64,000 nucleotides of DNA from an uncultured Methanosarcinales archaeon. Its GTDB lineage: Archaea; Nanobdellota; Nanobdellia; Woesearchaeales; DSVV01. Position 1 is the stretch's first letter, and every line of letters starts with the position of its first letter. The stretch is from the NCBI GenBank assembly GCA_964452935.1, contig CAYVNO010000005.1, positions 8,558 to 72,557 on the forward strand. Direction: 5' to 3'. A program made the translations under genes and the position numbers. The notes under the pieces were generated by a model that saw only the letters and a program-made list of their open reading frames with translations, was not told the origin of the DNA and did no database searches. Positions 5,662 to 20,824 of the stretch are shown here, one piece after another.

Positions 5662-6171
5662 CTACCATATCTTCTGAAAGTCCTCAATAACTCTAGCTCC
5701 TGAGTAGTTTAGGTACATATCTGTGGTAATCAAGCTACTATGCCCTAGGATCGCCTGCAAAGCCCTAATGTTGCCTCCTTTGTGGAGATATACAACTGCA
5801 AATGTGTGCCTTAATACATGGGGGCTTACAGGTTTCATTATCCTAGCTCTATCTGCTACAACTTTCACATACTTCTGTATTGTTCTCATGGCTAAAGGAA
5901 TTGTAGATTGGTGAGAGAAGCATTGTGTTAGATAGAATCTCACAATATTACTCATAGGAACAACCCTTCTCTTTCCACCCTTGCCTATTAAAGTCATACA
6001 ATTCCTCTGCCATGAGATATTTTCTTCTCTAAGGTTTGCAAATTCACTTACTCTTAATCCTGTTTCAAGTAAAACATTAACAACTAGTTCTTCCTCAAAA
6101 GTCTTACATGACTTTTTCATTGTTTGAATTTCATAATCTTCTAGAGGTTCTCTTTTGTATGTTTTTACCAT
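5662..6171 (-). CDS. Tyrosine recombinase/integrase, catalytic domain only (169 aa)
   Basis: Catalytic residues lie in order: ETGLRVSE (Arg), GKGGKRR (Lys), HVLRHTFA (His-x-x-Arg), LGHSSLITTDMYLNY (His, Tyr). There is no N-terminal core-binding domain. Confidence 0.8.
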   Translation of the reverse strand: MVKTYKREPLEDYEIQTMKKSCKTFEEELVVNVLLETGLRVSEFANLREENISWQRNCMTLIGKGGKRRVVPMSNIVRFYLTQCFSHQSTIPLAMRTIQKYVKVVADRARIMKPVSPHVLRHTFAVVYLHKGGNIRALQAILGHSSLITTDMYLNYSGARVIEDFQKIW

Positions 6172-6279: not shown

Positions 6280-6987
6280 ATGTTAAACAAAATCTACTGC
6301 ATGGACAATCTGAAATATCTTAAGAAAGTAAAAGATGATTCTGTTGATCTTGTGGTAATTGATCCTCCTTATAATGTCAGCCAAAAGAATAATATTAATT
6401 GCAAGAAAATAAAGGTTGTAAAGAATTTTGGTTCTTGGGATTATGGCTTTGACCCAGTTCCTGTTTTGAAGGAATTGAAGAGGGTTTTGAAACCTAATGG
6501 ACAAATTTACATATTCTGTGCTACTAAACAAATTCCAATTTATATGAAAATACTTGAAGAGGAGTGGTTTTTTAGGAATTTATTAGTTTGGTATAAGACA
6601 AATCCTGCTCCTAGGTTATCGAAGACTAATTATGTCTTTGCTAATGAGTACATTCTTTATGCAATTAACGAGAAAGTTAAACCTTCCTCAGCAACATTTA
6701 ACTTTTTGGGGCAGGTTCAAATGCATAATACAATTATTACCTCTGCTCTACAGGGGAAAGAAAGATTGAAGAAAGATGGCAAGGCTTTGCATCCGACTCA
6801 GAAGCCATTGTCAGTGTTGAAGAAGTTGATCTCTGTATCAAGTAATGAAGGCGATGTTGTTCTTGATGTGTTTATGGGTGTTGGTTCAACTGCTGTTGCT
6901 TGTAAGGAACTAGGTAGAAATTTTATGGGATGTGAGAGTGATATCCAATATTATCATTCAGGAATAGAAAGATTATCAAAGAATTAA
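6280..6987 (+). CDS. DNA methyltransferase, beta-class N6-adenine/N4-cytosine type (DPPY)
   Basis: Motif IV VVIDPPYNV precedes C-terminal motif I FMGVGSTAVACKELGRNFMGCE. Confidence 0.85.
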   Translation: MLNKIYCMDNLKYLKKVKDDSVDLVVIDPPYNVSQKNNINCKKIKVVKNFGSWDYGFDPVPVLKELKRVLKPNGQIYIFCATKQIPIYMKILEEEWFFRNLLVWYKTNPAPRLSKTNYVFANEYILYAINEKVKPSSATFNFLGQVQMHNTIITSALQGKERLKKDGKALHPTQKPLSVLKKLISVSSNEGDVVLDVFMGVGSTAVACKELGRNFMGCESDIQYYHSGIERLSKN

Positions 6988-8094
6988 CTATCTATTCATA
7001 ATCTCAAAATTTGTTGGATTATCTAAGAACCAATGTTGAGTTTTTTTATTAAGTAAACCTCTAACTTTAATTTTATATCCTTCTCGGTATGCATTACATG
7101 CATTTCTATGGTCTTCATCATTAAGATACAAGTAAACTTTTCTTTTTAATGCTGGAACATCTATCGTGATTAGTTTTCTTTCAGTATTTTGATCTACTTT
7201 TTGTCTTTGCAACTTTTTAATGATGCCCATAATTGTAATAGTTTCTTCTTCAGGTATTTTCTTCAAATAATTTGCCATTTTATTAAACTTTTTAAAATAC
7301 TGACTTGACTTTATCTCAGCTTCAATAGGCAATTCTTGATCCGATAATTCTGTGCTATCCCATTTCACTAAAAAATTAACATTAAATCCATTTTCATCTT
7401 TAAGTAAATTAGCTATTGCTTCACAAACATTCTTATTTAATTTCTTATTATAATCATTTCTAAATACATTTTCATCTTCAACTTCTAATTCTTCAACTTC
7501 CTTAATTCCTTGAATTAATCTTGCAACAGTTTTACGCCCAAGATCATTTAAATAACCATTATCATCATCAATTTCGATAAGATATGTTCTTCCTAAGGGT
7601 ACTTTTATTGAAATTACAAAACTACCTGCTTCTGTTTGAGCAAATTCGCAGTTTTCAACTAATTCTTTTGCGTCGTTAAATGGTTTTCTATATTGACTTT
7701 TTTCTTGAATTTCTGAACAAGCCCCAAATGTAATCATTTTTTTAACATTATTCATAACTCCTATAAAATCATTAAGTGGTATTGTACCACCTTTTGTGTT
7801 ATTTGCCACAAATCTAATCTTCATAAGGTCATAACCTTTATTTTTTATTTCTTCTTGAATATCTTGTGGATTTCTATTTTCCAATACTGCTAAGGCTTCA
7901 ATCAAATCCTTAATTCTAGAAGAATAGTCTATAAGATCTTCAGTGTTAGGGATTAGTAAATTTATTTGTTCTTCAAATTGTTTATTTATTTTTATAAATT
8001 TATCTTGAGAAGAGATAAAATTCCAGTCATGTTTACTTAAATAGTTTTTTATGTTATCAAGTTTTAATTTAAAGGTCATTAATCTCACCTCCAT
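6988..8094 (-). CDS. Hypothetical protein, last gene of the DUF2779/DUF4365 operon
   Basis: A 368-aa ORF with no motif I recognise. It overlaps the DUF4365 gene end by 26 nt, and its stop abuts the methylase stop with zero gap. Confidence 0.6.
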   Translation of the reverse strand: MEVRLMTFKLKLDNIKNYLSKHDWNFISSQDKFIKINKQFEEQINLLIPNTEDLIDYSSRIKDLIEALAVLENRNPQDIQEEIKNKGYDLMKIRFVANNTKGGTIPLNDFIGVMNNVKKMITFGACSEIQEKSQYRKPFNDAKELVENCEFAQTEAGSFVISIKVPLGRTYLIEIDDDNGYLNDLGRKTVARLIQGIKEVEELEVEDENVFRNDYNKKLNKNVCEAIANLLKDENGFNVNFLVKWDSTELSDQELPIEAEIKSSQYFKKFNKMANYLKKIPEEETITIMGIIKKLQRQKVDQNTERKLITIDVPALKRKVYLYLNDEDHRNACNAYREGYKIKVRGLLNKKTQHWFLDNPTNFEIMNR

Positions 8095-8590
8095 TTTTAA
8101 CTTGAGCTATAAGATTATTCAATTGATCTATATTAAATATATTTTCTGTAGGTATTTCTAATGTGGTACTACTATCTTCATTATCTTTTCTCTCTTTTCC
8201 CTTTAGACATATCCAATATGCACATTTCTTAACCATCAAAGAATTGACATCTTGAGTTAACCATGAATCCCTATCTTCAGGCAACATCAATACTACAAGT
8301 ATCCTCTGAGTCCCAGCATTTGGATCTCTAAGATCATTAAAATTTTTATTACGCAAACTATATTTAATGTGTGATTTTGTTAAAGTGCATCGTGTACTCG
8401 CCTTTACTTGTATATCTATATTATATCCTGAGGGGCAATACTTTCCTGAATCTCTTCTAATAATATCTTTTACAGTGATATCAAAACCATAATCTTTTGA
8501 ATCCTCTCCATAAATATATCCTGCCATTCCACAAACTGCTTGAATATATGCTATGCTTAAAGCTTCTTTGATATCATTATCTTGTAACAA
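8069..8590 (-). CDS. DUF4365-like PD-(D/E)xK (restriction-endonuclease fold) protein
   Basis: N-terminus EALSIAYIQAVCGMAGY, then DYGFDITV and NIDIQVKAS (D...Q-x-K core), as I recall for DUF4365. Confidence 0.65.
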   Translation of the reverse strand: MLQDNDIKEALSIAYIQAVCGMAGYIYGEDSKDYGFDITVKDIIRRDSGKYCPSGYNIDIQVKASTRCTLTKSHIKYSLRNKNFNDLRDPNAGTQRILVVLMLPEDRDSWLTQDVNSLMVKKCAYWICLKGKERKDNEDSSTTLEIPTENIFNIDQLNNLIAQVKNGGEINDL

Positions 8591-8615
8591 ATTTCTTACC
8601 TCAAATTCATTTTAT

Positions 8616-10058
8616 TTAATTTGTTATTTCTTTTAATTTATCCACAATCCATACCATACTTTCTGTATCTAAACAGCAGTATTTTAATAGGTTTGCTCTT
8701 ATTTCTTCCTTATTATCAAGTTTAGGTTTAATATGACTATAAAAATAAAGCATACTTGCATCTCCACCATTGCTTATTTCTAGTTCAGAATAACCTTTTT
8801 TTCCTGTAATTGCAGGAAGAACTTTTTTAATGGAATATGAACCTTTTTGTGATGGATTGTAATAATAAAATGCTCTAAATGGATCAGCCAAATCAACAAT
8901 ACGATTTATTGCTTGTTCAAGCCAGTCTTTATGTTCTGGGAAATCTTCAGCCAATTTTTTCATAACATTAATCTCAAATGATTTGTTAAATACTATTATG
9001 TCTCCTTTTCCATCTAAATCATTTTTCATTTGTTCAAGTAAAGCAGGTCTAGGATCTCCTTCTTCTGAAAGGAATTCTTTATGTTCTACTTTGCCATCTT
9101 CATGTTGGATGTGTAAACTGTATTGAAAAGGTATCTTTTGATATGGTCTTGAATTGTCAAACAAAGGAACTGCAGTATCCAATGTTTCAAAGTCAAAGTT
9201 ATACAATGGATAATTTAGTGATTTGAGAAAGTGTTTGATATGTTCTTTAGATATCATAACTTTGTTTTCATCAACTGCTTCTTTTATTATTTGGTCTTTA
9301 ACTGTAAGTTTTGTTCCTTCTGGGATGTCTTTTATGGCTTTTATTCCATTTTCCATTAATTTCCAATACACTCTCCAGTTAGTTAGTTGTAATACATTAT
9401 TTTCTGGTAAGGTTGACCAGCATTGTTCTTTTAATGCACATGGATATGGTTTATTACATTTCATTGAAATATGCATATCTGGGGCTGTTTCTTGGTTAAT
9501 TATTCTTAGAAATGTTTTGGCATTGGTTTCTATATTATTAATTAAATCTACCTTTTCAGTAACTTCTTCCATCAAAATTAGTTCTTCAGGCTTGATTTCT
9601 CCTTTTTTCACATATTCTTTGTTTAAGTATATTACAAAACATTTATTTATCTTCAATCCTATTTTTTCACAGACATATTTTTGAAAAGCTAAATCAGGAA
9701 TATGTTGTTCTTTGACTTTTGTAGTGGATTTGATTTCATATAAATCCCAACCATTTTTAGAAGGTTTAATCAAATCTGCTCTAATAAATAGATTATCAAC
9801 CATAAATCCAGCTTCAAATATTGTTTTATTTTGCTCTACTGCTTCTTTAGTCTTTTCAAGATTTTCTTTAAATTCTAAACCATTTAAATCGATAGATTCA
9901 GGAAAGAGTTTCTTAACATATTCTTCAAAATCATGACCTTGTGAGAATTTATGTTCATCAAAAAGAGTAATCTCTGGAAGTTGTTTTCTATCTGCAAACC
10001 ATAATAATCTGAGACATTGCAATCCATTCATGTATTTTGATTTAGTTAGTTGAGTCAT
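8616..10058 (-). CDS. DUF2779-family protein (N-terminal Cas4/RecB-like PD-(D/E)xK nuclease plus DUF2779 domain)
   Basis: SKYMNGLQCLRLLWF N-terminus, RADLIKP...LYEIKST nuclease core, and DFETLDTAVPLF...IPFQYSLHI in the C-terminal half. Confidence 0.75.
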   Translation of the reverse strand: MTQLTKSKYMNGLQCLRLLWFADRKQLPEITLFDEHKFSQGHDFEEYVKKLFPESIDLNGLEFKENLEKTKEAVEQNKTIFEAGFMVDNLFIRADLIKPSKNGWDLYEIKSTTKVKEQHIPDLAFQKYVCEKIGLKINKCFVIYLNKEYVKKGEIKPEELILMEEVTEKVDLINNIETNAKTFLRIINQETAPDMHISMKCNKPYPCALKEQCWSTLPENNVLQLTNWRVYWKLMENGIKAIKDIPEGTKLTVKDQIIKEAVDENKVMISKEHIKHFLKSLNYPLYNFDFETLDTAVPLFDNSRPYQKIPFQYSLHIQHEDGKVEHKEFLSEEGDPRPALLEQMKNDLDGKGDIIVFNKSFEINVMKKLAEDFPEHKDWLEQAINRIVDLADPFRAFYYYNPSQKGSYSIKKVLPAITGKKGYSELEISNGGDASMLYFYSHIKPKLDNKEEIRANLLKYCCLDTESMVWIVDKLKEITN

Positions 10059-10195: not shown

Positions 10196-10342
10196 ATGCC
10201 AAGAATTAAGCTGGAGGGTTACTTTTGTACAAGGTGCGGTCATAAGTGGGTTCCTAGAGATAATAATGAAAAACCAACAGTTTGCCCTAAATGCAAAAGT
10301 CCGTATTGGGATAAGCCTAGAAAAAATGAAAAAAGTCTTTAG
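10196..10342 (+). CDS. 48-aa zinc-ribbon protein (not in the supplied ORF track)
   Basis: Hand translation gives MPRIKLEGYFCTRCGHKWVPRDNNEKPTVCPKCKSPYWDKPRKNEKSL, with two CxxC pairs. It overlaps the proposed dcm start by 17 nt. Confidence 0.5.
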   Translation: MPRIKLEGYFCTRCGHKWVPRDNNEKPTVCPKCKSPYWDKPRKNEKSL

Positions 10343-11324
10343 AACTATAGACCTATTCGCAGGAGTAGGGGGTGTTAGATTAGGATTTGAAAGAGCTGGT
10401 TTTAAAACTGTTTTTGCCAATGATTTTGACAAGACCTGTAAACAAATTTATAATATTAATTTTAAAGAGCCCAAACTTATTATTGAAGATATCTGGAAGG
10501 TTGAAATATCAAAACTTCCTAAATTTGATATCCTTTTAGGAGGATTTCCCTGCCAAGCATTCAGCATTGCAGGGTATAAAAAAGGCTTCAAAGATGAAAA
10601 GAATGGGGGAAATTTATTTTTTAGAATTGCTGAAATATTAGAGGAGAGAAAGCCTGAGGCAATCCTTCTTGAAAATGTTAAAAACCTAAAAACACATGAT
10701 AAAGGGAAAACTTTCAAAATTATTAAAGCGACATTAAAAAAATTAGGATATCATATTAAAACAGAAGTGTTAAACAGTATGACTCACGGCAATGTGCCTC
10801 AGAATAGAGAACGAATTTTTATTGCAGGATTTCTCGATAAAAATAAAGCAGACTGTTTCAGATTTCCAGAGGAGATTCCCTTAACTATATCGTTTAGAGA
10901 ATTGGTGGCAGAAAGAGCAGATAATAAATATTATTACAATGATAAGCCTCTATACAAAAGAATTAAAGATGACATAAATTCAGAACATACTGTTTACCAA
11001 TGGAGAAGGAAATATGTAAGAGCAAATAAAAAAGGAGTCTGTCCTACACTTACAGCAAATATGGGAAGAGGAGGGCATAATGTCCCAATTATAAAAAATA
11101 GTAAGGGGATAAGAAAGCTGACTCCTAAAGAATGTTTTCTTATTCAAGGATTCCCTAAAAACTTTAAACTTCCCGAAGATCTATCTGACAGTAATTTATA
11201 TCATCAAGCAGGAAATAGTGTGACTGTTCCTGTAATTGAAAGAATCGCTTTTAATATGAGAAATGTTCTGCTTGGAAAAGTCAAACCAAGAAAAGACATT
11301 TTAACATCATACATAGATAATTAA
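10326..11324 (+). CDS. dcm: DNA (cytosine-5)-methyltransferase
   Basis: Motif I DLFAGVGG, motif IV GGFPCQAFS, motif VI ENVKNL, motif VIII QNRERIFI, motif X GNSVTVPV. The start is chosen at MKKVFRTIDLFAG; the track ORF starts at 10266. Confidence 0.92.
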   Translation: MKKVFRTIDLFAGVGGVRLGFERAGFKTVFANDFDKTCKQIYNINFKEPKLIIEDIWKVEISKLPKFDILLGGFPCQAFSIAGYKKGFKDEKNGGNLFFRIAEILEERKPEAILLENVKNLKTHDKGKTFKIIKATLKKLGYHIKTEVLNSMTHGNVPQNRERIFIAGFLDKNKADCFRFPEEIPLTISFRELVAERADNKYYYNDKPLYKRIKDDINSEHTVYQWRRKYVRANKKGVCPTLTANMGRGGHNVPIIKNSKGIRKLTPKECFLIQGFPKNFKLPEDLSDSNLYHQAGNSVTVPVIERIAFNMRNVLLGKVKPRKDILTSYIDN

Positions 11325-12373
11325 ATTTGTTTTCTTATTTTCTCTATATATTGCTTTGGACTCTCAATTATTACATTATTTAGATTCCTTTGTGCGATCC
11401 AGATATTGTTTCTTTTTAAAGAAGGGTTCATTCCCACAGTAATAAACCAGCATTCATACACTTTGCCTTTTTCCAGATCAAAAGTACCAAGCACCTTATT
11501 TTTAATGACAGCATTATTTTTTGCATGAATATACAATCTTTGAGAAGATAATTTCCCATTTTTATAATTTTTCTTTAGATAAACATCAATATCTCCTTTA
11601 TAATCAAAAGAACCAAACTCCTTTGGTTTAGGCAGATTATTACTCATTATTACAGGAAATTTTCCTGATTTAAGAGATAGTTTTTCAAAAGGATTATCAT
11701 CAGATAATATTTTTTTAGTTGTCATACCACTTGCTTCTTTTATTAGTTCTGTTTCATAGAGATATGAACCTTGATTAAACGGAACTCCATGTTTTTGTAG
11801 ATCATTTCCTGTGATAATGTATTGGACTTTAACAATTAAATCTCCGACTTCACAGAATTTTTTTAATAAGTCTAAATCTATTTTTGATTTTAGATAAACA
11901 CCCAATGGATCAATATCACCCTCTTTGTTTTTTGTCAATAAAGTTGCATAAATGAGTATAACTTTTTCAGTTTTGTTGTCTACAAGTCTATCAGAAAGAA
12001 TAGTATTAAATTGTTCTGCAGTCAAACCAATCCATCTGTCAGCCTCAGAAATATTTTTTATTTCGACATATAGATTAGGTTCCCTTAAATTATTATTCTC
12101 AACAATTTTGACAATATCTGGATCGGATATATTGTCTTTGCTTAATTCATGAATATCAAAATCTAAAATGCATTTTTTCTTGGTTTCCTTTTCAATAATC
12201 TTTGCTACTCCAATCTCAATTAATTTTCCTATAACAAAGCTGTCAAATATTCCTCCAAGCCCTCTATATTGACCTGTAGTTCTATTTGCAGCCATCTTAG
12301 TTTTATCTAAATGATATTCAACTGCAAATTTAAAACATTTGTCTAAATCTTCTTCTTTTATTTTGTATTCCAT
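11321..12373 (-). CDS. Probable type II restriction endonuclease partner of the m5C methylase
   Basis: It converges on dcm with a 4-nt overlap and is co-oriented with vsr. It has a PD-(D/E)xK-like core, SDPDIVKI...LYVEIKNI. Specificity is unknown. Confidence 0.55.
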   Translation of the reverse strand: MEYKIKEEDLDKCFKFAVEYHLDKTKMAANRTTGQYRGLGGIFDSFVIGKLIEIGVAKIIEKETKKKCILDFDIHELSKDNISDPDIVKIVENNNLREPNLYVEIKNISEADRWIGLTAEQFNTILSDRLVDNKTEKVILIYATLLTKNKEGDIDPLGVYLKSKIDLDLLKKFCEVGDLIVKVQYIITGNDLQKHGVPFNQGSYLYETELIKEASGMTTKKILSDDNPFEKLSLKSGKFPVIMSNNLPKPKEFGSFDYKGDIDVYLKKNYKNGKLSSQRLYIHAKNNAVIKNKVLGTFDLEKGKVYECWFITVGMNPSLKRNNIWIAQRNLNNVIIESPKQYIEKIRKQI

Positions 12374-12374
12374 C

Positions 12375-12776
12375 TTAATCTGCTTTTTTTACTATTTTAT
12401 TAACAACCTTAACCAAATCTGCTTTTATTTGGTGCTCCCACAATGTTAATATTTTAAAACCTGATTGTTTAAGTATTTTTTTGTTTCTAGCGTCTCTTTT
12501 CACATTCTTTTCTAATTTGGGAAGCCAGTATTCCTTCTTGCTTTTAGGTTCTTTATAGCATTTTGGACACTTATGCCAGAAACAGCCATGCAAAAAAACA
12601 ACAGTATTGGTCTTTGTTAAGAGAAGGTCTGGGTTTCCATGAATAGAAGGATGCATCTTATGTTTGATTTTTCTTCCTTTTAAATAATTATGAATCTTTT
12701 TCTCTTGAGCAGTCCACTTGCTTCTAATTCTAGACATACATTTTGATCTTTGCTCTTTTGTCAAATTATCAGACAT
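12375..12776 (-). CDS. vsr: Very-short-patch repair endonuclease
   Basis: RSKCMSRIRSK, GNPDLLL, FLHGCFWHKC, EYWLPKLEKNVKRD and LTLWEH are collinear with E. coli Vsr. Confidence 0.9.
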   Translation of the reverse strand: MSDNLTKEQRSKCMSRIRSKWTAQEKKIHNYLKGRKIKHKMHPSIHGNPDLLLTKTNTVVFLHGCFWHKCPKCYKEPKSKKEYWLPKLEKNVKRDARNKKILKQSGFKILTLWEHQIKADLVKVVNKIVKKAD

Positions 12777-13288: not shown

Positions 13289-13620
13289 AAATACTGCCTT
13301 TGCTGTTTTTGATGCTGTTGACAATAACTCTAGCAACACCACTTGTACTAGCGACAATTGACTTTGATCAAGGTCTTACTCAAGATGAGGAAGACATGAT
13401 TGATGAGATTTTAGCTCCAGTAATGAAAGTCTACAACTTCATAAAATATGCAGCTACTGTTGCTGGAGTATTGATGCTGGTCTTTGCAGGAATAACCTTT
13501 GTCACAGCAGGAGGAGACACAGGACAAAAAGAGAAAGCCAAAAACATGGCTGTGGGTGTAGTCATTGGATTAATCATAATCTGGGTCGCACCTTTAGTAG
13601 TGGAGTTTATCTTCACATGA
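13285..13620 (+). CDS. TrbC/VirB2-like pilin candidate
   Basis: 111 aa. It has a signal peptide (LTITLATPLVLA), then two hydrophobic helices (AATVAGVLMLVFAGITFV and VGVVIGLIIIWVAPLVV) joined by a short GGDTGQKEKAKN loop. This is the VirB2/TrbC architecture. Confidence 0.6.
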   Translation: MKILPLLFLMLLTITLATPLVLATIDFDQGLTQDEEDMIDEILAPVMKVYNFIKYAATVAGVLMLVFAGITFVTAGGDTGQKEKAKNMAVGVVIGLIIIWVAPLVVEFIFT

Positions 13621-15659
13621 AAAAAACAATTTTTATTTTAGTGACAGCAGTTTTACTGCTGTCCAATTTTGTTTATGCTTTTGATTGTAGTTTAACCTAT
13701 GATGAAGACTACTGTAATGAAATCCTAGAATCCGAATTAAATGAAACTGAAAAAGATTTGTTATTCTCTACTTTGCTCTATCAAGATAGTACTTTCCCTG
13801 ATCATGAATTTATTGAAGATTATAATCTTAATTTTTATGTAGACTCTCCTCCAGATAATACAACATACAGTTCAACACAAATAAAGAATGCTTGGCTCTC
13901 TTTCTTAGCAGTATTTCCAGCTGTATATGAAAATAACACCTTGTATGTTTTTGAAGAATTGAAAGCATTAAGTGAATACAACTATGATGTCCAAATACCA
14001 ACAGAAACAAAACCAAATGACTGCAAAACTGAATATACTTTAGTTAATGATCAAGCTCAATTGAATTATTATCTTAATGGCAATTACAAAGAGGATGATA
14101 AACTTGCTTTGTTGTACATTGATCAAGATGGCACTTTAACAGCAGAATTAGAAATAAACACAAATGTTGAGGTTGACCATTATGAATGGTATTACTACTG
14201 CTGTGCTTGGGGTAAAAAAGGACAATGTACTAAATATTGTAAGAAATGTAAATATGCTTACACTGATTATGAATATGATAATTTAATAATTTCTGAGGAC
14301 AAAGAGATAGAACTCTATACAGAAGAACCAACAGCAGATTTAATAGTAGTAAATCAATACCAAAATACAACTAAAGGGATATTTACAGCTGAGAATTATA
14401 GTTTTTTCAGATTAAGCTTTGAAGATTCATACTTAACTAAACAAAACTACTATTATGACTTAGTATTTGAAAAGAAACCTTATCACTTTGCATATCTTAG
14501 AGCTGTTCCTTATGAAGATACAAAAATAAAAAACATTTTTGTAAACAATGATACATTCTTTGTAAAGAATACAAACAACTGTTCATTAACTGCTTACAAT
14601 CACTTTTATAACTTCACCTCTGGTTGTGATCTAATTTTATATCAGGAAAATATAGAAGAATTAAGCATAGAAACAGATGATATTGACTTAAGTATATTAC
14701 TTTATGTTTTAGTATTTTTAGGAGTTATTTACATAATTTATAGGTTATTAAAATCACAATACAAAAAGATAATACTGCCCATATTATTTATTATCTTATT
14801 CATACCTTTTGTATCAGCAGATGATTCAGAAGAATGTGGAATAACTAATTTAGCTTCATGTCTGCCAGAGGCAATATATGAATACTTTTTGTATTTGATT
14901 AACTTGCCTGTTTTACCTTTCCTTGCAGGAATTGAAGCAATGTTAACAGCAGATATTGCAATTGATTTATTTTTTGGAGTATGGAATGTGATAAGATACC
15001 TCTTAAGTTTCTTTTATGTATTCTTATTGATCTATGTAGGATATGTTTTCATTACCTCGAACTCTAACCCAATAAAAAGAGCTCATGCTAAGGATATGTT
15101 AAAGAATATTTTTTTAATGTTAATATTAATACAAGGATCATTTTATATCTATGGCTTGGCTTTGGATATTAATGCGGTATTAACTGATGCAATATTATCA
15201 ATGATTGATCCTACCTTCTTTTTGATTACAGTTGACAATGTAGCTAACGTAGCACTGGAAGGAGTTTATTTATCCACTTATTGTTTTACTTTATTTATTA
15301 CATTACTGATGTTGGTATTTAGATATGTTGTTGTTTGTTTGGGTGTGATAATTTTCCCTATTGGAATATTTTGCTATTTTATCCCTCCCTTGAAAGGTTA
15401 TGGCAAGTTTATCATCAATGTTTTAGCTATTTTTATCTTCATTACATTTTTGGATTTGTTGATTGTGTTATGTTGCTCAATGATAGTTGAGCTTCCTTTA
15501 TTTGAGAATATCAAGATTTTAATAATGATAAATTGCTTTTCAATGATAATTTACTCAATGTGGCTTGCAATAAGATTTGCAATGAGAATGTCCACTAACA
15601 CTTCATTGAAAGACGATTTGAATCAAGCTGTGAAATATATAGCTATGGTTGCTGTTTAA
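13617..15659 (+). CDS. VirB6/TrbL/CedA-like polytopic membrane protein with large secreted N-domain
   Basis: Signal peptide, about 350-aa extracytoplasmic domain with a Cys cluster (YYCCAWGKKGQCTKYCKKCKY), then 8 or more TM helices. It directly follows the pilin-like gene. Confidence 0.5.
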   Translation: MKKTIFILVTAVLLLSNFVYAFDCSLTYDEDYCNEILESELNETEKDLLFSTLLYQDSTFPDHEFIEDYNLNFYVDSPPDNTTYSSTQIKNAWLSFLAVFPAVYENNTLYVFEELKALSEYNYDVQIPTETKPNDCKTEYTLVNDQAQLNYYLNGNYKEDDKLALLYIDQDGTLTAELEINTNVEVDHYEWYYYCCAWGKKGQCTKYCKKCKYAYTDYEYDNLIISEDKEIELYTEEPTADLIVVNQYQNTTKGIFTAENYSFFRLSFEDSYLTKQNYYYDLVFEKKPYHFAYLRAVPYEDTKIKNIFVNNDTFFVKNTNNCSLTAYNHFYNFTSGCDLILYQENIEELSIETDDIDLSILLYVLVFLGVIYIIYRLLKSQYKKIILPILFIILFIPFVSADDSEECGITNLASCLPEAIYEYFLYLINLPVLPFLAGIEAMLTADIAIDLFFGVWNVIRYLLSFFYVFLLIYVGYVFITSNSNPIKRAHAKDMLKNIFLMLILIQGSFYIYGLALDINAVLTDAILSMIDPTFFLITVDNVANVALEGVYLSTYCFTLFITLLMLVFRYVVVCLGVIIFPIGIFCYFIPPLKGYGKFIINVLAIFIFITFLDLLIVLCCSMIVELPLFENIKILIMINCFSMIIYSMWLAIRFAMRMSTNTSLKDDLNQAVKYIAMVAV

Positions 15660-15716
15660 CTTTCTTAAGAATCTTTAGAAACAATATGCCCATAATTTAT
15701 TGTTGATTAAGTTGTA

Positions 15717-16604
15717 TTAAAAATGAGTGGGATATCTTTGTCTCAATCTTTCTCTAGTTACTGCCATATTTTCTCTATATCTTGCATTAGCTTCACTAAT
15801 TTGAGAATCTTGAATACCATTTAGTCTTGCATCACACCTATCAATACCATCACCACCCAAATCAATAACTTCTATGGGTCTTTGAACAGTTAACTCTAAT
15901 GGATTAGCTCTAGAAATGTCAGTAATAACAAATTCAAATACATGGGAAGTTTCATCATAAGAAAATGATGAATATCTCCCTTCTGGTGCATCTGTAATTG
16001 TTAAAGTTGCATCATATCCCTTTCTATGTACAAAACCAACATTTCTAATTCTTTCTAAAGTTTCATCATCAAAAACAGCACTAAATGTCCATTTAGGTCT
16101 ATACTCCCATTCTTGAGTTTTTCTCCATTTCTCATTAAACGCTCTTAACTCATCAATCTGAGTTTGGGTTTCAGAATCTCCAGAACAATTCTGAGGCCAA
16201 GCTTCTAAGATTTCAGGATGTGTAACAGTGATCCTTTTGAAAAGAGCTCCGTAAGTATTAGCTCCATTTAAACTTTGATTCAAAACAGTATTTAAGAAAT
16301 ATCTATCACCTATATCCGCAGAAGTCATTTCATCTTCATTCATTAATTCAGCTGCAAATTCATAAGCTTCTGTGTAAGCTCTGACAAAGGCTGGTAAATC
16401 TTTATCTGATAATGCCTTATCCATAGCCTCATAAGCTAAATCAAATTGTTCATGAATATTAGAAGAAGCTTCTCTACTTTTCAAGAGTTCATCAACAGAC
16501 ATTTTGGTATTGTCTGCACTATCATCATCACCTTTATTACAAGCAACTCCCCCCCCCATTATCAGTAGGGTGGTTAATAATGCTAAATCATGATATCTTC
16601 TCAT
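15717..16604 (-). CDS. Lipobox-bearing secreted protein, paralog A
   Basis: Signal peptide ending GGGVAC. It is Lys-poor and acidic. The C-terminal block DLGGDGIDRCDARLNGIQDSQI is shared with 16660..17580. Confidence 0.7.
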   Translation of the reverse strand: MRRYHDLALLTTLLIMGGGVACNKGDDDSADNTKMSVDELLKSREASSNIHEQFDLAYEAMDKALSDKDLPAFVRAYTEAYEFAAELMNEDEMTSADIGDRYFLNTVLNQSLNGANTYGALFKRITVTHPEILEAWPQNCSGDSETQTQIDELRAFNEKWRKTQEWEYRPKWTFSAVFDDETLERIRNVGFVHRKGYDATLTITDAPEGRYSSFSYDETSHVFEFVITDISRANPLELTVQRPIEVIDLGGDGIDRCDARLNGIQDSQISEANARYRENMAVTRERLRQRYPTHF

Positions 16605-16659
16605 AATCTATTTAGAATTGGCCTTAGCTTATATATTTTATTATTTTGAAGTCTTCTCT

Positions 16660-17580
16660 TTATATTCCTGGAAAGAACCCAGTTCCTTCATATCTCTCAT
16701 GAAGTTTATCCCTAGAAGTATGTAAACAAGAATCATATTGGGAATTAGCAGAGTCAATTTGTGATTCTTGAACTCCATTTAATCTTGCATCACATCTATC
16801 AATACCATCACCACCCAGATCAAGAACATCACATTCTCTAGTTACTGAGGTAGCTATTCCATTATTTTGAGTAGTAAATAAGCTAAATCTAATGAAAGAT
16901 GCATCTTCATACCAATCTATTCTTGTAAAAGTTCCAGGAGTTAAGTATCTTGAACTATCATTCATGGAAGCTCCATGAGGAAGATTTGCATTTCTTGTTA
17001 ACTCTAAAGTTCCATCATCATGTATGGTCATCCACTCCCACATATCAATCTGAATACCTTCATCTCTTCTTTTATTATTAACAAATCCCACCATATCACC
17101 AATCATTGATTTAGCATCAGAATATTCATCACCACAATCACTTGGCCAATCTCTCAACATTTCAGGATTTGCCATAATTTGTGCAAAAATCTGGCCATAA
17201 GTACCTCTACTGGTGTCATAAAAAGTCTCATGCCAAGCAGCATCAGTTACTAAGCCCATTTCTCCAATCTCTTCCATAAATTCACGAGTATCTCTATATG
17301 CGTCGACAAAAGCAGGTAAGTCTTTTTGAGCTAAAGCATCATCCATTTCTTTGTAGTGTTCATTTCTTTTTTCAAAATACTCTTTTTGCATCTCAGCCAA
17401 TTCCTCTATAATTTGAGTTCCCACTACTTCAGTTATTCTAGTATTTCTACTTGAAACAGTTACCCTATCTTCTAATTCTTCAGATAAGGGATCTTTAGGA
17501 TCTTCACAACCAGCTAGAAGACTAATTAAAGGAACTGTTGCTAACATTGTCCAAAGTCGATTATAAGTCATAAATCTCAT
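16660..17580 (-). CDS. Lipobox-bearing secreted protein, paralog B
   Basis: Signal peptide ending LLAGC. It shares KDLPAFV, the WP..C motif and DLGGDGIDRCDARLNGVQESQI with paralog A. Confidence 0.7.
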   Translation of the reverse strand: MRFMTYNRLWTMLATVPLISLLAGCEDPKDPLSEELEDRVTVSSRNTRITEVVGTQIIEELAEMQKEYFEKRNEHYKEMDDALAQKDLPAFVDAYRDTREFMEEIGEMGLVTDAAWHETFYDTSRGTYGQIFAQIMANPEMLRDWPSDCGDEYSDAKSMIGDMVGFVNNKRRDEGIQIDMWEWMTIHDDGTLELTRNANLPHGASMNDSSRYLTPGTFTRIDWYEDASFIRFSLFTTQNNGIATSVTRECDVLDLGGDGIDRCDARLNGVQESQIDSANSQYDSCLHTSRDKLHERYEGTGFFPGI

Positions 17581-17761: not shown

Positions 17762-20700
17762 ATGAGCTATGACATTCCACCACCATTACAACACAAGGAA
17801 AAGATAATGTTTGGGCTAACTTTCCCTCAACTAGGCTATGCTTTCTTGGCTTTCATAATAATATTTGTAATTATATTCAAGATTAACCTACCAATTGCAG
17901 TAAGTGGAACTATTTCTTTATTTGTCGTATCCATTGCTTCATTCTTCATGTTCTTTGATGGGAGAAAAAGATTAGTTTCTTGGTATAACTACTTAAGAAA
18001 TCCAAAAGTTGAAGTTTTGAGCGATCAATTAAAAAAAATAGTTGACATAAAAAAGATAGAAAACAATTCAATTCAGAAATCAAAATCTAAATTAGCAATA
18101 TTAGAAGTTATTCCAATGAATTTCATGCTAAAGACAGAAGAGGAAAAAGAATCCATCATAATAACCTTCCAGAAATTCCTTAATTCTCTAGATTTTCCAA
18201 TACAAATACATATCTCAAGCAATCCAATCAGCTTAAGTGGACATTTAAAATACACAAATAATCAAGTACAGAAGAAGATAAAAGAGAAAAAAGATAAATC
18301 TTTAAACAAATTAATTGACTCATACTGTAATTTTGTAAACTCTTCTATAAAAGATAACAGCATTCAAAACAGAAACTTTTACATAATAATCCAAGAGAAA
18401 GATAACTTAGACATGCAGGTAGAAGTATGTAAAGATAAATTAACCTCTTTAGGTGTAAAAGTTAGAAGATTAGAAACTCCAGATATCATAAACATGCTTC
18501 ATCAGCAGATAGCAAACAATAAAGACAAGGAGTTTAATAAAGAAGAGATAAAAGATTTGGCACATTTCATGTTTGCTCCAGATAAAGTTAATTTCTTGGC
18601 AGATCATTTCAAAGTAGATGATAAATTTTGCAAGATAATAGCTGTAACTGGATACCCACATAGTGTAGAAATGGGCTTTATGGATAAGATAATCTCTTCT
18701 GGTGATAAGTATGATATTAGTTTACATATTGAACCATTCCCAATAGAAACAACAATGGTTGATTTAAATAGAGATTTACAAAAACAACAATCAGACATAT
18801 ATGCTGATTCAAAAAAAGGCATTCTTAACCAATCATTAGAGATAAAGTTCAAGTCAACAAAGAGAGTTCTTGAAGATTTGCAGAAAGGCAAGCAAAAACT
18901 GTTCAATATTTCTTTATACATCATGTGTAAAGGAGACTCTAAAGAAGATATTGATTTACTAGGAAAGAAAATAAAAGCAGATTTAGATGGCTTAATGATA
19001 CAAAATGCTATTCCAAAATATCAAATGATGGAATCTTACACAAGCACACTGCCTTTAGCAAATAATGTTTTAGATATTAAAAGAAATATACATACAGAAG
19101 GACTTGGAGCATTTTTTCCATTCTCTTCTCCATTCTTAGACATTGACAATGATGGTATAATGCTTGGTTTAAACAAAAACAAAATACCATTAATAAAAAA
19201 CATTTTCAACTTAGCCAATGCAAATGGAATTATACTGGCAACATCAGGCTCTGGTAAAAGTTATTTTACTAAACTTTTGCTCTCAAGACAATATATGAAC
19301 GGCTGTGATGTTATTATCATTGATCCTCAAGGAGAATACTTAGCAATAACAGAGCATTACAAAGGAGAATCTATTACAATCTCTAAAGATTCAAAGACAA
19401 TCATTAATCCATTAGATTTAATGGGGCATGAATATTTAGAAAAAAGATTGTCATTAATGGATTTATTCCCTATAATGTTTGGGGATATTAATGAATTGCA
19501 AAAATCTATACTAGATAGAGCAATAGACATGACTTACAGTAACAGAGGAATTACTAGGGATGATTATGAATCACATGTTCCACCTACAATGGGTGAATTA
19601 TATAATATGTTAAGAAAATTAGAAAAAGATGCAGTCCAGCAGGAAAAAGTAACATACAGGGCTTTGATAAACAGAATTCACATGTATACAAAAGATGGTG
19701 TGTTTGGTTTCTTAGACAGACAAACAGAGATTAATTTTGATAATAATTTTGTTTGTTTTAATATAGGACATATGCCAAAACAAGTAAAGCCTGTTGTAAT
19801 GTATTTAGTTTTAGATTATGTTTTCATGAGAATGAAGAATAGTAATAAAAGAAAATTATTAGTTGTTGATGAAGCTTGGTCAATGCTTCAAACAGCAGAA
19901 GAATCTTCATATATATTTGAAATTGTAAAGACTTGTAGAAAATATAACTTAGGATTATTAATGATTACCCAAGATGTTGCAGATCTTGTGGCATCTAAAG
20001 CAGGGCATGCTGTGTTGACTAACACTTCATATACCTTTTTATTAAGGCAGAAACCTGCTGTAATTCAAAACGTTTCTAAGACCTTCAATCTTAGCCAGAC
20101 TGAAAAAGAGTTCATTATATCGGCTAAATTGGGCTCAGGAATACTAATTATGGAGAATGATCATCAAGAATTAGAAGTTATAGCTTCTCCTGAAGAACAT
20201 AAATTAATCACTACAAATCCAGACGAAATGATTAAGATGGGTGAGAAGAAAAAGCCTAAAGATTCTGGGATAAAAAAGGAAGATGAACAAGCTAACTTAG
20301 ATTTAAACAAAATAGTATTCTCTGGAGAAGGATTGACATTAGTACAAATAAATTTCTTAAATAATAATAGCTATGTTTTCAAGAAAGCTTGTGGATTACA
20401 CAGTAATGTGCCAAAGAAATTTTATGTAAAGGAAAGACCACCAGAATCTATTGATCATACTCTGCTTGTTGGCTTGATTGTTGAAGAATTAAAAAAACAT
20501 ACTGATAAGGTTAATGTTTACCAAACAAAAAAACCAGATATAATTTTCAAAAATAAAGTTGGACAGGAGATTGTTCTAGAAATTGAAACTGGAATTGGTT
20601 TTGACAAGCACAAGAAAAGACTTGAAGAAAAGTTTTCTGAGCTGAAGAAGAAAAAAGGAAAAAGAGCTTACATTGTTTTGACAGAGTTAAAGATCAAGAA

Positions 20701-20824
20701 TAGATACTTGAGGTTTGGTTTGCCCATACTAGGCAGAGCAGATATAGAAAGGTTTGTAATGCAACAATTTAGTGGTAAGAAGAACTCACATATAGGGCGG
20801 GATTTATGCATTACAAATGAATAA
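17762..20824 (+). CDS. VirB4/TrbE/CedB-like conjugation-type ATPase with N-terminal TM (VirB3-like) segment and C-terminal extra domain
   Basis: Two N-terminal TM helices, Walker A ATSGSGKSYFTK, Walker B LLVVDEAWSM and LLMITQDVADL. The roughly 200-aa C-terminal extension contains ESIDH...KKPDIIF...EIVLEIETG. Confidence 0.85.
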   Translation: MSYDIPPPLQHKEKIMFGLTFPQLGYAFLAFIIIFVIIFKINLPIAVSGTISLFVVSIASFFMFFDGRKRLVSWYNYLRNPKVEVLSDQLKKIVDIKKIENNSIQKSKSKLAILEVIPMNFMLKTEEEKESIIITFQKFLNSLDFPIQIHISSNPISLSGHLKYTNNQVQKKIKEKKDKSLNKLIDSYCNFVNSSIKDNSIQNRNFYIIIQEKDNLDMQVEVCKDKLTSLGVKVRRLETPDIINMLHQQIANNKDKEFNKEEIKDLAHFMFAPDKVNFLADHFKVDDKFCKIIAVTGYPHSVEMGFMDKIISSGDKYDISLHIEPFPIETTMVDLNRDLQKQQSDIYADSKKGILNQSLEIKFKSTKRVLEDLQKGKQKLFNISLYIMCKGDSKEDIDLLGKKIKADLDGLMIQNAIPKYQMMESYTSTLPLANNVLDIKRNIHTEGLGAFFPFSSPFLDIDNDGIMLGLNKNKIPLIKNIFNLANANGIILATSGSGKSYFTKLLLSRQYMNGCDVIIIDPQGEYLAITEHYKGESITISKDSKTIINPLDLMGHEYLEKRLSLMDLFPIMFGDINELQKSILDRAIDMTYSNRGITRDDYESHVPPTMGELYNMLRKLEKDAVQQEKVTYRALINRIHMYTKDGVFGFLDRQTEINFDNNFVCFNIGHMPKQVKPVVMYLVLDYVFMRMKNSNKRKLLVVDEAWSMLQTAEESSYIFEIVKTCRKYNLGLLMITQDVADLVASKAGHAVLTNTSYTFLLRQKPAVIQNVSKTFNLSQTEKEFIISAKLGSGILIMENDHQELEVIASPEEHKLITTNPDEMIKMGEKKKPKDSGIKKEDEQANLDLNKIVFSGEGLTLVQINFLNNNSYVFKKACGLHSNVPKKFYVKERPPESIDHTLLVGLIVEELKKHTDKVNVYQTKKPDIIFKNKVGQEIVLEIETGIGFDKHKKRLEEKFSELKKKKGKRAYIVLTELKIKNRYLRFGLPILGRADIERFVMQQFSGKKNSHIGRDLCITNE

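Follow-up and report, generated by a model that had tools for sequence, protein, structure and literature searches.

A candidate nuclease-sensor pair of the PDC-M02 family in a DPANN archaeon, next to a solo-Cas4-like nuclease gene and an orphan methyltransferase gene

Organization of the locus

We analysed a stretch of 64,000 nucleotides (nt) of contig CAYVNO010000005.1 from a DPANN archaeon (the window, with a composition of ~30% GC), in which three consecutive minus-strand genes run towards a plus-strand methyltransferase gene. An earlier, sequence-only reading had regarded the three genes as a single nuclease-based system. According to their profile matches, two of them are an archaeal member of PDC-M02, a candidate family that is already catalogued and experimentally uncharacterised, while the remaining nuclease gene and the methyltransferase gene appear to be independent neighbours. 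The four genes, with protein lengths in amino acids (aa), are the following:

8616..10058, minus strand: DUF2779 gene (gene 1), 480 aa; Pfam DUF2779 (1.6e-45) and Cas4
8069..8590, minus strand: DUF4365 gene, PDC-M02A, 173 aa, TTG start; Pfam DUF4365 (7e-21)
6988..8079, minus strand: PDC-M02B, 363 aa; the longest open reading frame (ORF), 6988..8094, has 368 aa
6280..6987, plus strand: orphan beta-class (DPPY) N6/N4 methyltransferase, 235 aa; N6_N4_Mtase (7.7e-43)

Our reading of the ORFs bears out the three minus-strand genes as first described, with a spacer of 25 nt between the DUF2779 and DUF4365 genes. It also confirms that the methylase and the last gene meet at their stops: the TAA of the methylase (6985-6987) abuts the TAG of the M02B gene (6988-6990, minus strand), leaving a spacer of 0 nt. 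The nuclease motifs that the first reading had quoted are real and are conserved among homologues. A correction is needed for the overlap of the last two genes, which had been given as 26 nt. The ATG at 8079 (M6 of the longest ORF) is preceded by the Shine-Dalgarno sequence GGAGGTGA, all M02B homologues begin at the equivalent position, and the database copy has 363 aa. The true start of M02B is therefore most likely ATG 8079, which gives a protein of 363 aa and an overlap with the DUF4365 gene of 11 nt, as in relatives. The TTG start of the M02A gene is in turn preceded by GAGGT.

Two of the genes match the catalogued candidate PDC-M02

The PADLOC comparison proposed by the sequence-only reading was carried out and identified both genes. 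The DUF4365 protein matches the PDC-M02A model over its full length (5.3e-47, residues 1-167 of 173), and the product of 6988..8094 matches PDC-M02B, likewise over its full length (1.1e-54, residues 10-366). All 25 matches listed for 8069..8590 are M02A models, and all 25 listed for 6988..8094 are M02B models. The layout of the window pair is that of PDC-M02: the genes adjoin each other on one strand, A precedes B, and they overlap, here by 11 nt. The contexts are also alike, adjoining or lying inside restriction-modification (R-M) systems.

PDC-M02 was defined as the two-family cassette FAM_01850>>FAM_00842 (CAS_00021) by Payne et al. (bioRxiv 10.1101/2024.01.29.577857, supplementary table 8). 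Its count of 894 puts it second in abundance among the multi-gene candidates of that catalogue. Phage defence candidates (PDCs) were collected through guilt-by-embedding, that is, from genes embedded within BREX, DISARM and type I R-M loci (bioRxiv 10.1101/2024.01.29.577857). The PDC-M02 models were built on RefSeq genomes, whereas the window copy comes from a DPANN archaeon and shares 21-37% identity with the sampled bacterial members. The system itself is thus not discovered here, and the earlier description of the module as new does not hold.

The pair is conserved without its neighbours

To describe the conservation of the pair, we used a sample of 26 PDC-M02 loci including the window, which reduce to 20 independent lineages. 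Besides the window, these lineages comprise DPANN loci (L001, L002, L004, L007, L010, L011, L013), metagenomic bacterial loci (L014, L015), plasmid loci (L016-L023) of Methylobacterium, Gluconobacter, Pigmentibacter, Entomospira, Paenarthrobacter, Phaeobacter, Pusillibacter and Streptomyces, and the phage loci L084 and L085, representing Leptospira phage LE1 and prophages of M. abscessus. Of the 20 lineages, 19 have a DUF4365 gene directly upstream of M02B and in the same orientation, Pigmentibacter (L018) being the one exception; the Paenarthrobacter pair was recognised only after the sequence had been joined across the plasmid origin. At the junction the two genes abut or overlap by up to 17 nt, except in L023, where a gap of 5 nt separates them. 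The 19 lineages span DPANN archaea, six bacterial phyla, plasmids and temperate phages, and the bacterial groups include Alphaproteobacteria, Spirochaetota, Actinomycetota and Bacillota.

The M02B family is large. A HMMER search with a profile of DPANN relatives returned 3237 representative clusters at E<=1e-3, 2102 of them at E<=1e-10, nearly all with 360-400 aa. Sixteen of the relatives are close, the closest coming from Nanoarchaeia/Woesearchaeota assemblies, as do those of the DUF2779 protein, which is the reason for assigning the organism to the DPANN archaea, and 15 plasmid records cover at least 80% of the query. A search of GTDB genomes for related loci with a narrow alignment yielded two loci; the broader alignments lacked a sufficiently conserved stretch. 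In the temperate phages the pair (398..2160 in L084, 3450..5128 in L085) is recognised with hidden Markov model E-values of 1e-38 to 4e-73. It makes up gp38/gp37 of Leptospira phage LE1, whose protein is the only full-length M02B match in BFVD (E 8e-24), and genes 1-2 of prophi102-2 and prophiGD54-1, two prophages of M. abscessus in which it occupies the end of the sequence as deposited. PHROGs holds both families (27905 and 27927).

The other genes of the interval do not follow the pair. DUF2779 was found in none of the 25 other PDC-M02 loci (23 scanned by phmmer, the two phage records read by annotation), neither M02A nor M02B was found in any of 59 other DUF2779 loci (46 after dereplication), and the 23 phmmer-scanned loci contained no homologue of the window methylase. 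The phyletic patterns also differ: the 16 close relatives of M02B stand against more than 120 DPANN clusters of DUF2779 at 59-80% identity. Since the pair occurs elsewhere without DUF2779 or the methylase, and DUF2779 elsewhere without the pair, these reciprocal neighbourhood scans rule out a conserved three-gene system; as far as gene neighbourhoods tell, the trio is a juxtaposition specific to the window, and the functional unit is the DUF4365/M02B pair. Of the proposed nuclease-based candidate defence module, two genes thus remain, and the three-gene operon is rejected as a conserved system.

The surroundings of the pair vary. It is found with an AbiJ-like gene inside a type I system, flanked by hsdS and hsdR (L014), after hsdR-M-S (L001), facing two hsdM genes and adjoining type I R-M (L011), after Dcm/ICEA/Vsr (L007), in front of a Dam-like methylase and NurA/HerA (L002), among DUF262 (GmrSD-like), HicA and Abi genes (L019), and in plain housekeeping surroundings (L015, L022). 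Such contexts are commonly those of a mobile cassette for defence or exclusion, which is suggestive and not proof. As a separate observation, a 219-aa Cas4-like PDDEXK_1 gene (551..1210 in L004; also in L005 and L006) shares 11 nt with the beginning of the DUF4365 gene. A specific relationship of the L004 protein to the window DUF2779 protein was considered and rejected (BLASTP E 0.32).

M02A retains a nuclease active site and M02B is predicted to end in an OB fold

M02A is a bare DUF4365 domain of the Mrr-like PD-(D/E)xK type (Pfam PF14280, 75.2 bits against a cut-off of 24.3). The residues D33, D37, Q61 and K63 are invariant in 16 diverse partner proteins, 15 of which have D or E at position 59, so that the Mrr-type active site D37...(D/E)59-x-Q61-x-K63 is retained, in line with the catalytic residues expected from the sequence-only reading. 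Q61 and K63 align with Q62 and K64 of TmuRE, the DUF4365 nuclease of a SPARDA system, where they are the proposed active site and were mutated for the inactive control (PMC10810196). The SPARDA nuclease degrades DNA non-specifically after its Argonaute partner has recognised a target (PMC10810196). M02A is accordingly predicted from its conserved residues to be the effector of the pair, a stand-alone DUF4365 DNase.

M02B gave no match to Pfam, to NCBIfam or to PDB sequences, and no sequence homologue of either protein was found in the PDB. A search with a profile of 141 M02B sequences added at least two proteins. The structure prediction that had been proposed for the 368-aa protein was run with AlphaFold2 on the 141-sequence alignment and gave a confident model (pLDDT 94.3, pTM 0.85). 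In this model, residues 1-100 form an N-terminal alpha/beta domain with the order alpha-beta-beta-beta-alpha-alpha-beta, which lacks a conserved D...ExK. The helical middle domain bears the best-conserved motif of the family, F-G-Q-T-E-x-G-S-F, in which G157 and S158 are invariant and T154 is present in at least 90% of the members. Finally, the C-terminus (about residues 284-366) is modelled as a five-stranded barrel with an OB fold. A Foldseek search of the PDB matched this barrel to the OB folds of single-stranded DNA-binding protein (SSB), replication protein A (RPA), PolC-OB and the anticodon-binding domains of aminoacyl-tRNA synthetases, and weak PF01336 matches were found in 5 of 29 M02B members. 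With the whole model as query, the first ~280 residues found no match in the PDB. We also considered M02B as a degenerate paralogue of the DUF4365 or PD-(D/E)xK proteins and rejected it on the hhalign probability between M02B and M02A (0.1%) and on the lacking D...ExK. The model thus points to a fold that is absent from the PDB and ends in an OB fold, and M02B is predicted to be the sensor or regulator subunit.

The DUF2779 gene encodes a solo-Cas4-like nuclease with a DEDDy domain

The DUF2779 protein scores 154.9 bits for DUF2779 and 24.8 bits for Cas4 (cut-off 22.7) in Pfam. Its predicted iron-sulfur (Fe-S) cysteines C15, C201, C207 and C213 are each kept by 124 or more of 127 homologues. 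The PD-(D/E)xK residues D95 and E108 are invariant and K110 is kept in 126 of the 127, as the first reading had expected for a conserved nuclease, and the DEDDy residues D289, E291, E362, Y460 and D464 are again each found in at least 124. On these residues, gene 1 joins in one protein a solo-Cas4-like nuclease of PD-(D/E)xK/Fe-S type and a DEDDy 3'-5' exonuclease, an architecture that has already been described (PMC3985635; PMC13621843). It is called solo-Cas4 because the window contains no CRISPR array and no Rfam match (nor a tRNA), and the surroundings no cas genes; it is thus not placed in a cas operon or next to an array, as a CRISPR-associated Cas4 would be. An antisense ORF of 153 aa lies inside the gene (9223..9684, plus strand), and similar ORFs occur in a few homologous loci; it is most likely a by-product of the codon usage of the coding strand and not a gene.

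In DPANN relatives (loci L024-L083), R-M genes of varied type show a strong, directional enrichment 5' of DUF2779. The gene at position -1 belongs to R-M or defence in ~12 of 31 cases; it encodes HsdR, MmeI-like IIG, type III Res, Dcm, TdeIII or GmrSD proteins, often abutting and on the same strand. Positions -2 to -4 hold R-M genes in ~20 of 72 cases, while positions +1 to +4 hold them in ~6 of 78, with five integrases among the genes. In total, and counted without a matched control gene, R-M accounts for ~30% of the four 5' genes versus ~8% of the four 3' genes. The window fits this pattern, with Vsr, a putative restriction endonuclease (REase) and Dcm on the 5' side of DUF2779, and PDC-M02, the methylase and then a truncated Xer recombinase gene on the 3' side. 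An adjacency of solo-Cas4 and R-M genes in DPANN had been pointed out before (Hudaiberdiev et al. 2017, PMC5704561); the directionality seen for the solo-Cas4/DEDDy gene sharpens this hint and is no discovery.

Because of the directional enrichment, DUF2779 could be seen as a dedicated R-M accessory in DPANN archaea, with a RecBCD/AddAB-like role in the clean-up or end-processing of restricted invader DNA, kept in place while the R-M system on its 5' side is swapped (types I, IIG, III and II). In the window its partner would be the Dcm/REase/Vsr module, with PDC-M02 as a separate cassette that entered on the 3' side at the cost of xer. We regard this as a tentative idea with the odds against it. 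Either way, the neighbourhood comparison argues that gene 1 is an independent neighbour outside PDC-M02.

A further arrangement was noticed around DUF2779 in L028 (563..8440; also in L029, and similarly in L037 and L056), where a conserved string of six same-strand genes ends in DUF2779. It starts with a large N6_N4 methylase (~580 aa); proteins of 241, 274 and 321 aa follow, with a DEAD/ResIII helicase of 732 aa between the first and the second of them, and the gene of the 321-aa protein overlaps DUF2779 by 1 nt. None of the three small proteins has a recorded Pfam match. The string may represent a multi-gene type III-like or DISARM-like system.

The flanking region

The three minus-strand genes and the methylase are bordered by two further features:

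5662..6171, minus strand: XerA-like tyrosine recombinase remnant, 5'-truncated, 169 aa; Phage_integrase (1.3e-27)
10266..12776, Dcm on the plus strand, REase and Vsr on the minus strand: Dcm/putative REase/Vsr module

The methylase matches the PADLOC model MTase_II (3.4e-59), and no REase candidate adjoining it was found among the window ORFs. As protective partner of the pair it was rejected, given the 23 scanned loci without a homologue; by this comparison it is not a conserved partner of PDC-M02.

The Xer remnant matches positions 95-257 of 263 of the XerA model and is separated by 109 nt from the start of the methylase. Full-length xer homologues (268-278 aa) are found 2-5 kb 3' of DUF2779 in L034, L043 and L046, and a SufS-like gene beyond the Xer remnant recurs 3' of DUF2779 in L034, L041 and L043. 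The truncation relative to the full-length copies, together with the shared SufS-like gene, points to an insertion of PDC-M02, alone or along with the methylase, that cost xer its 5' end. The remnant would then mark the edge of an inserted or variable block.

On the other side, 10266..12776 appears to be a type II R-M module with Vsr, directly 5' of DUF2779; its putative REase (350 aa, minus strand) has a weak PADLOC match to REase_II (4e-4). Further along, a 1020-aa VirB4/TraG-like P-loop ATPase is encoded at 17762..20824 on the plus strand (PF19044 1.4e-29, DUF87), and the genes at 13617..17580 have no Pfam match. In L035 and L047 a homologue of the ATPase is encoded within 4-8 kb of DUF2779; in L026 a TrbC-like pilin gene and an integrase gene lie nearby. 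It is possible that the stretch of ~5.6 to 21 kb as a whole represents an integrated mobile element. The defence-island-like context noted from the sequence is thus upheld by the Dcm/REase/Vsr module and the truncated tyrosine recombinase that flank the region, which we take on its gene content to be a variable (defence or mobile-element) part of the DPANN genome.

Proposed mechanism and alternative explanations

We consider it probable, at about 0.7, that the interval holds three independent things, namely PDC-M02, the DUF2779 nuclease and the orphan methyltransferase, and that PDC-M02 acts as a cassette in which a sensor licenses a nuclease. This proposal is based on the coupling of the two genes, the intact nuclease of a non-specific type, the partner with a nucleic-acid-binding fold, and the carriage by plasmids and prophages. 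Starting from the gene linkage, the conserved active site and the predicted fold, we infer a complex, its ligand and the outcome as follows. With the M02A and M02B genes translationally coupled through their 11-nt overlap, the two proteins would form a complex in which M02B keeps the M02A nuclease inactive. The OB fold of M02B, together with the conserved central domain, may detect a nucleic-acid signal associated with an invader, candidates being single-stranded DNA and replication or recombination intermediates. Upon detection, M02A would degrade DNA non-specifically. By analogy with SPARDA and with HamA/HamB, the outcome would be either destruction of the invader or abortive infection.

Several points weigh against this proposal. 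The OB-fold matches of M02B are weak (Foldseek E 3e-3 to 0.1, TM-score to the target 0.5-0.67), and about half of the sampled PDC-M02 loci lie in non-defence contexts (L015, L022, L021, L010). A literature search found no paper that names PDC-M02 or tests it experimentally, and among other PDCs that were put to experiment, four of eight were active in one study (PMC12881386) and neither of two in another (PMC12409345). In addition, the 25-nt gap and the TTG start led by a Shine-Dalgarno sequence permit co-transcription of DUF2779 with the pair, and hence a local functional link, and the three-gene string of the L004 lineage resembles the layout of the window.

The pair could instead be an addiction module of toxin-antitoxin (TA) type, or a DNA-transaction module, in which M02A is a toxin neutralised by M02B and the function is maintenance of, or competition between, mobile elements. 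The frequent carriage by plasmids (the 15 records mentioned above) and temperate phages is in keeping with this, as are the tightly coupled two-gene architecture and the neighbouring RelE/ParE, HicA, recombinase and integrase genes. A nuclease of 170 aa that comes first, followed by a multidomain OB partner of 370 aa, is nevertheless atypical for type II TA, and defence genes typically show the kind of embedding in type I R-M operons that the pair has in L014 and L001 (Payne et al.). Besides, TA and abortive-infection defence are not mutually exclusive. We judge an addiction module to be rather unlikely.

A genuine three-gene unit limited to the lineage of the window, in which DUF2779 is co-transcribed and works with the pair, for instance in the processing of DNA ends that the pair makes or senses, is in our view very unlikely. 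It would draw on the shared strand, the 25-nt gap and the internal-type M02A start led by a Shine-Dalgarno sequence, and a Cas4-like gene also lies directly upstream in two of eight DPANN lineages, one of them L004 (PF12705, 219 aa, 11-nt overlap). Against this, the reciprocal scans of 25 PDC-M02 and 59 DUF2779 loci did not recover the combination, the PDDEXK_1 protein of L004 shows no specific relationship to DUF2779, and stand-alone pairs in relatives have upstream AT-rich TATA-like and Shine-Dalgarno sequences of their own. Tiny gene spacing is found everywhere in these genomes, and promoter inference in the 25-nt spacer is uninformative at 30% GC.

An R-M-like system, in which the methylase protects the host from M02A and M02B is a specificity or DNA-binding subunit, is barely credible: the methylase is directly adjacent, stop to stop, has no other adjoining REase candidate, and Mrr-type folds are known in restriction enzymes, but the methylase and the pair did not occur together in the 23 scanned loci, many loci (L010, L015, L017, L021, L022) are devoid of methylases within 6-8 kb, and those methylases that do occur near other pairs are parts of complete R-M systems of other kinds (types I, II Dcm, Dam). 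The atypical multi-subunit R-M system or methylase-protected module of the sequence-only reading can therefore be set aside, and we retain the independent, sensor-licensed cassette.

Comparison with known systems

With more than 3000 sequence clusters across bacteria, archaea, plasmids and temperate phages, PDC-M02 is a widespread candidate. What is added here is the strict two-gene unit, the invariant active site, a predicted partner fold absent from the PDB, the carriage by phages and the reach into DPANN archaea. The pair is thereby a well-defined experimental target with tractable bacterial and prophage homologues.

The DUF2779 protein resembles the other members of its family (PF11074, e.g. 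MMSYN1_0389 of JCVI-syn3.0) in combining a Cas4-like N-terminal half with D-ExK and a C-terminal DEDDy domain. The DPANN protein has all four Fe-S cysteines, whereas the mycoplasma protein has two. The two also differ in length: the window protein has 480 aa in total, while the DEDD-like domain of MMSYN1_0389 begins only at ~460.

In Hachiman, a small PD-(D/E)xK effector, HamA, is combined with a larger nucleic-acid-sensing partner, the helicase HamB, a two-gene logic that PDC-M02 resembles. M02B, however, lacks helicase or ATPase motifs, M02A is a DUF4365 and not a DUF1837 protein, and no Hachiman model is among the PADLOC matches listed for M02A or M02B.

SPARDA is comparable in its effector: this too is a DUF4365 Mrr-like nuclease and shares the Q-x-K active-site motif of M02A, and it is licensed by a separate sensor before it cuts DNA non-specifically. 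No prokaryotic Argonaute was called in the PDC-M02 neighbourhoods, and no evidence of a guide nucleic acid was found. The SPARDA/short Argonaute architecture, MID-PIWI plus APAZ fused to an effector, is not that of M02A/M02B: SPARDA has APAZ and Argonaute, and PDC-M02 has neither, M02A being a bare 170-aa nuclease domain that is paired with an unrelated 363-aa protein predicted to carry an OB fold.

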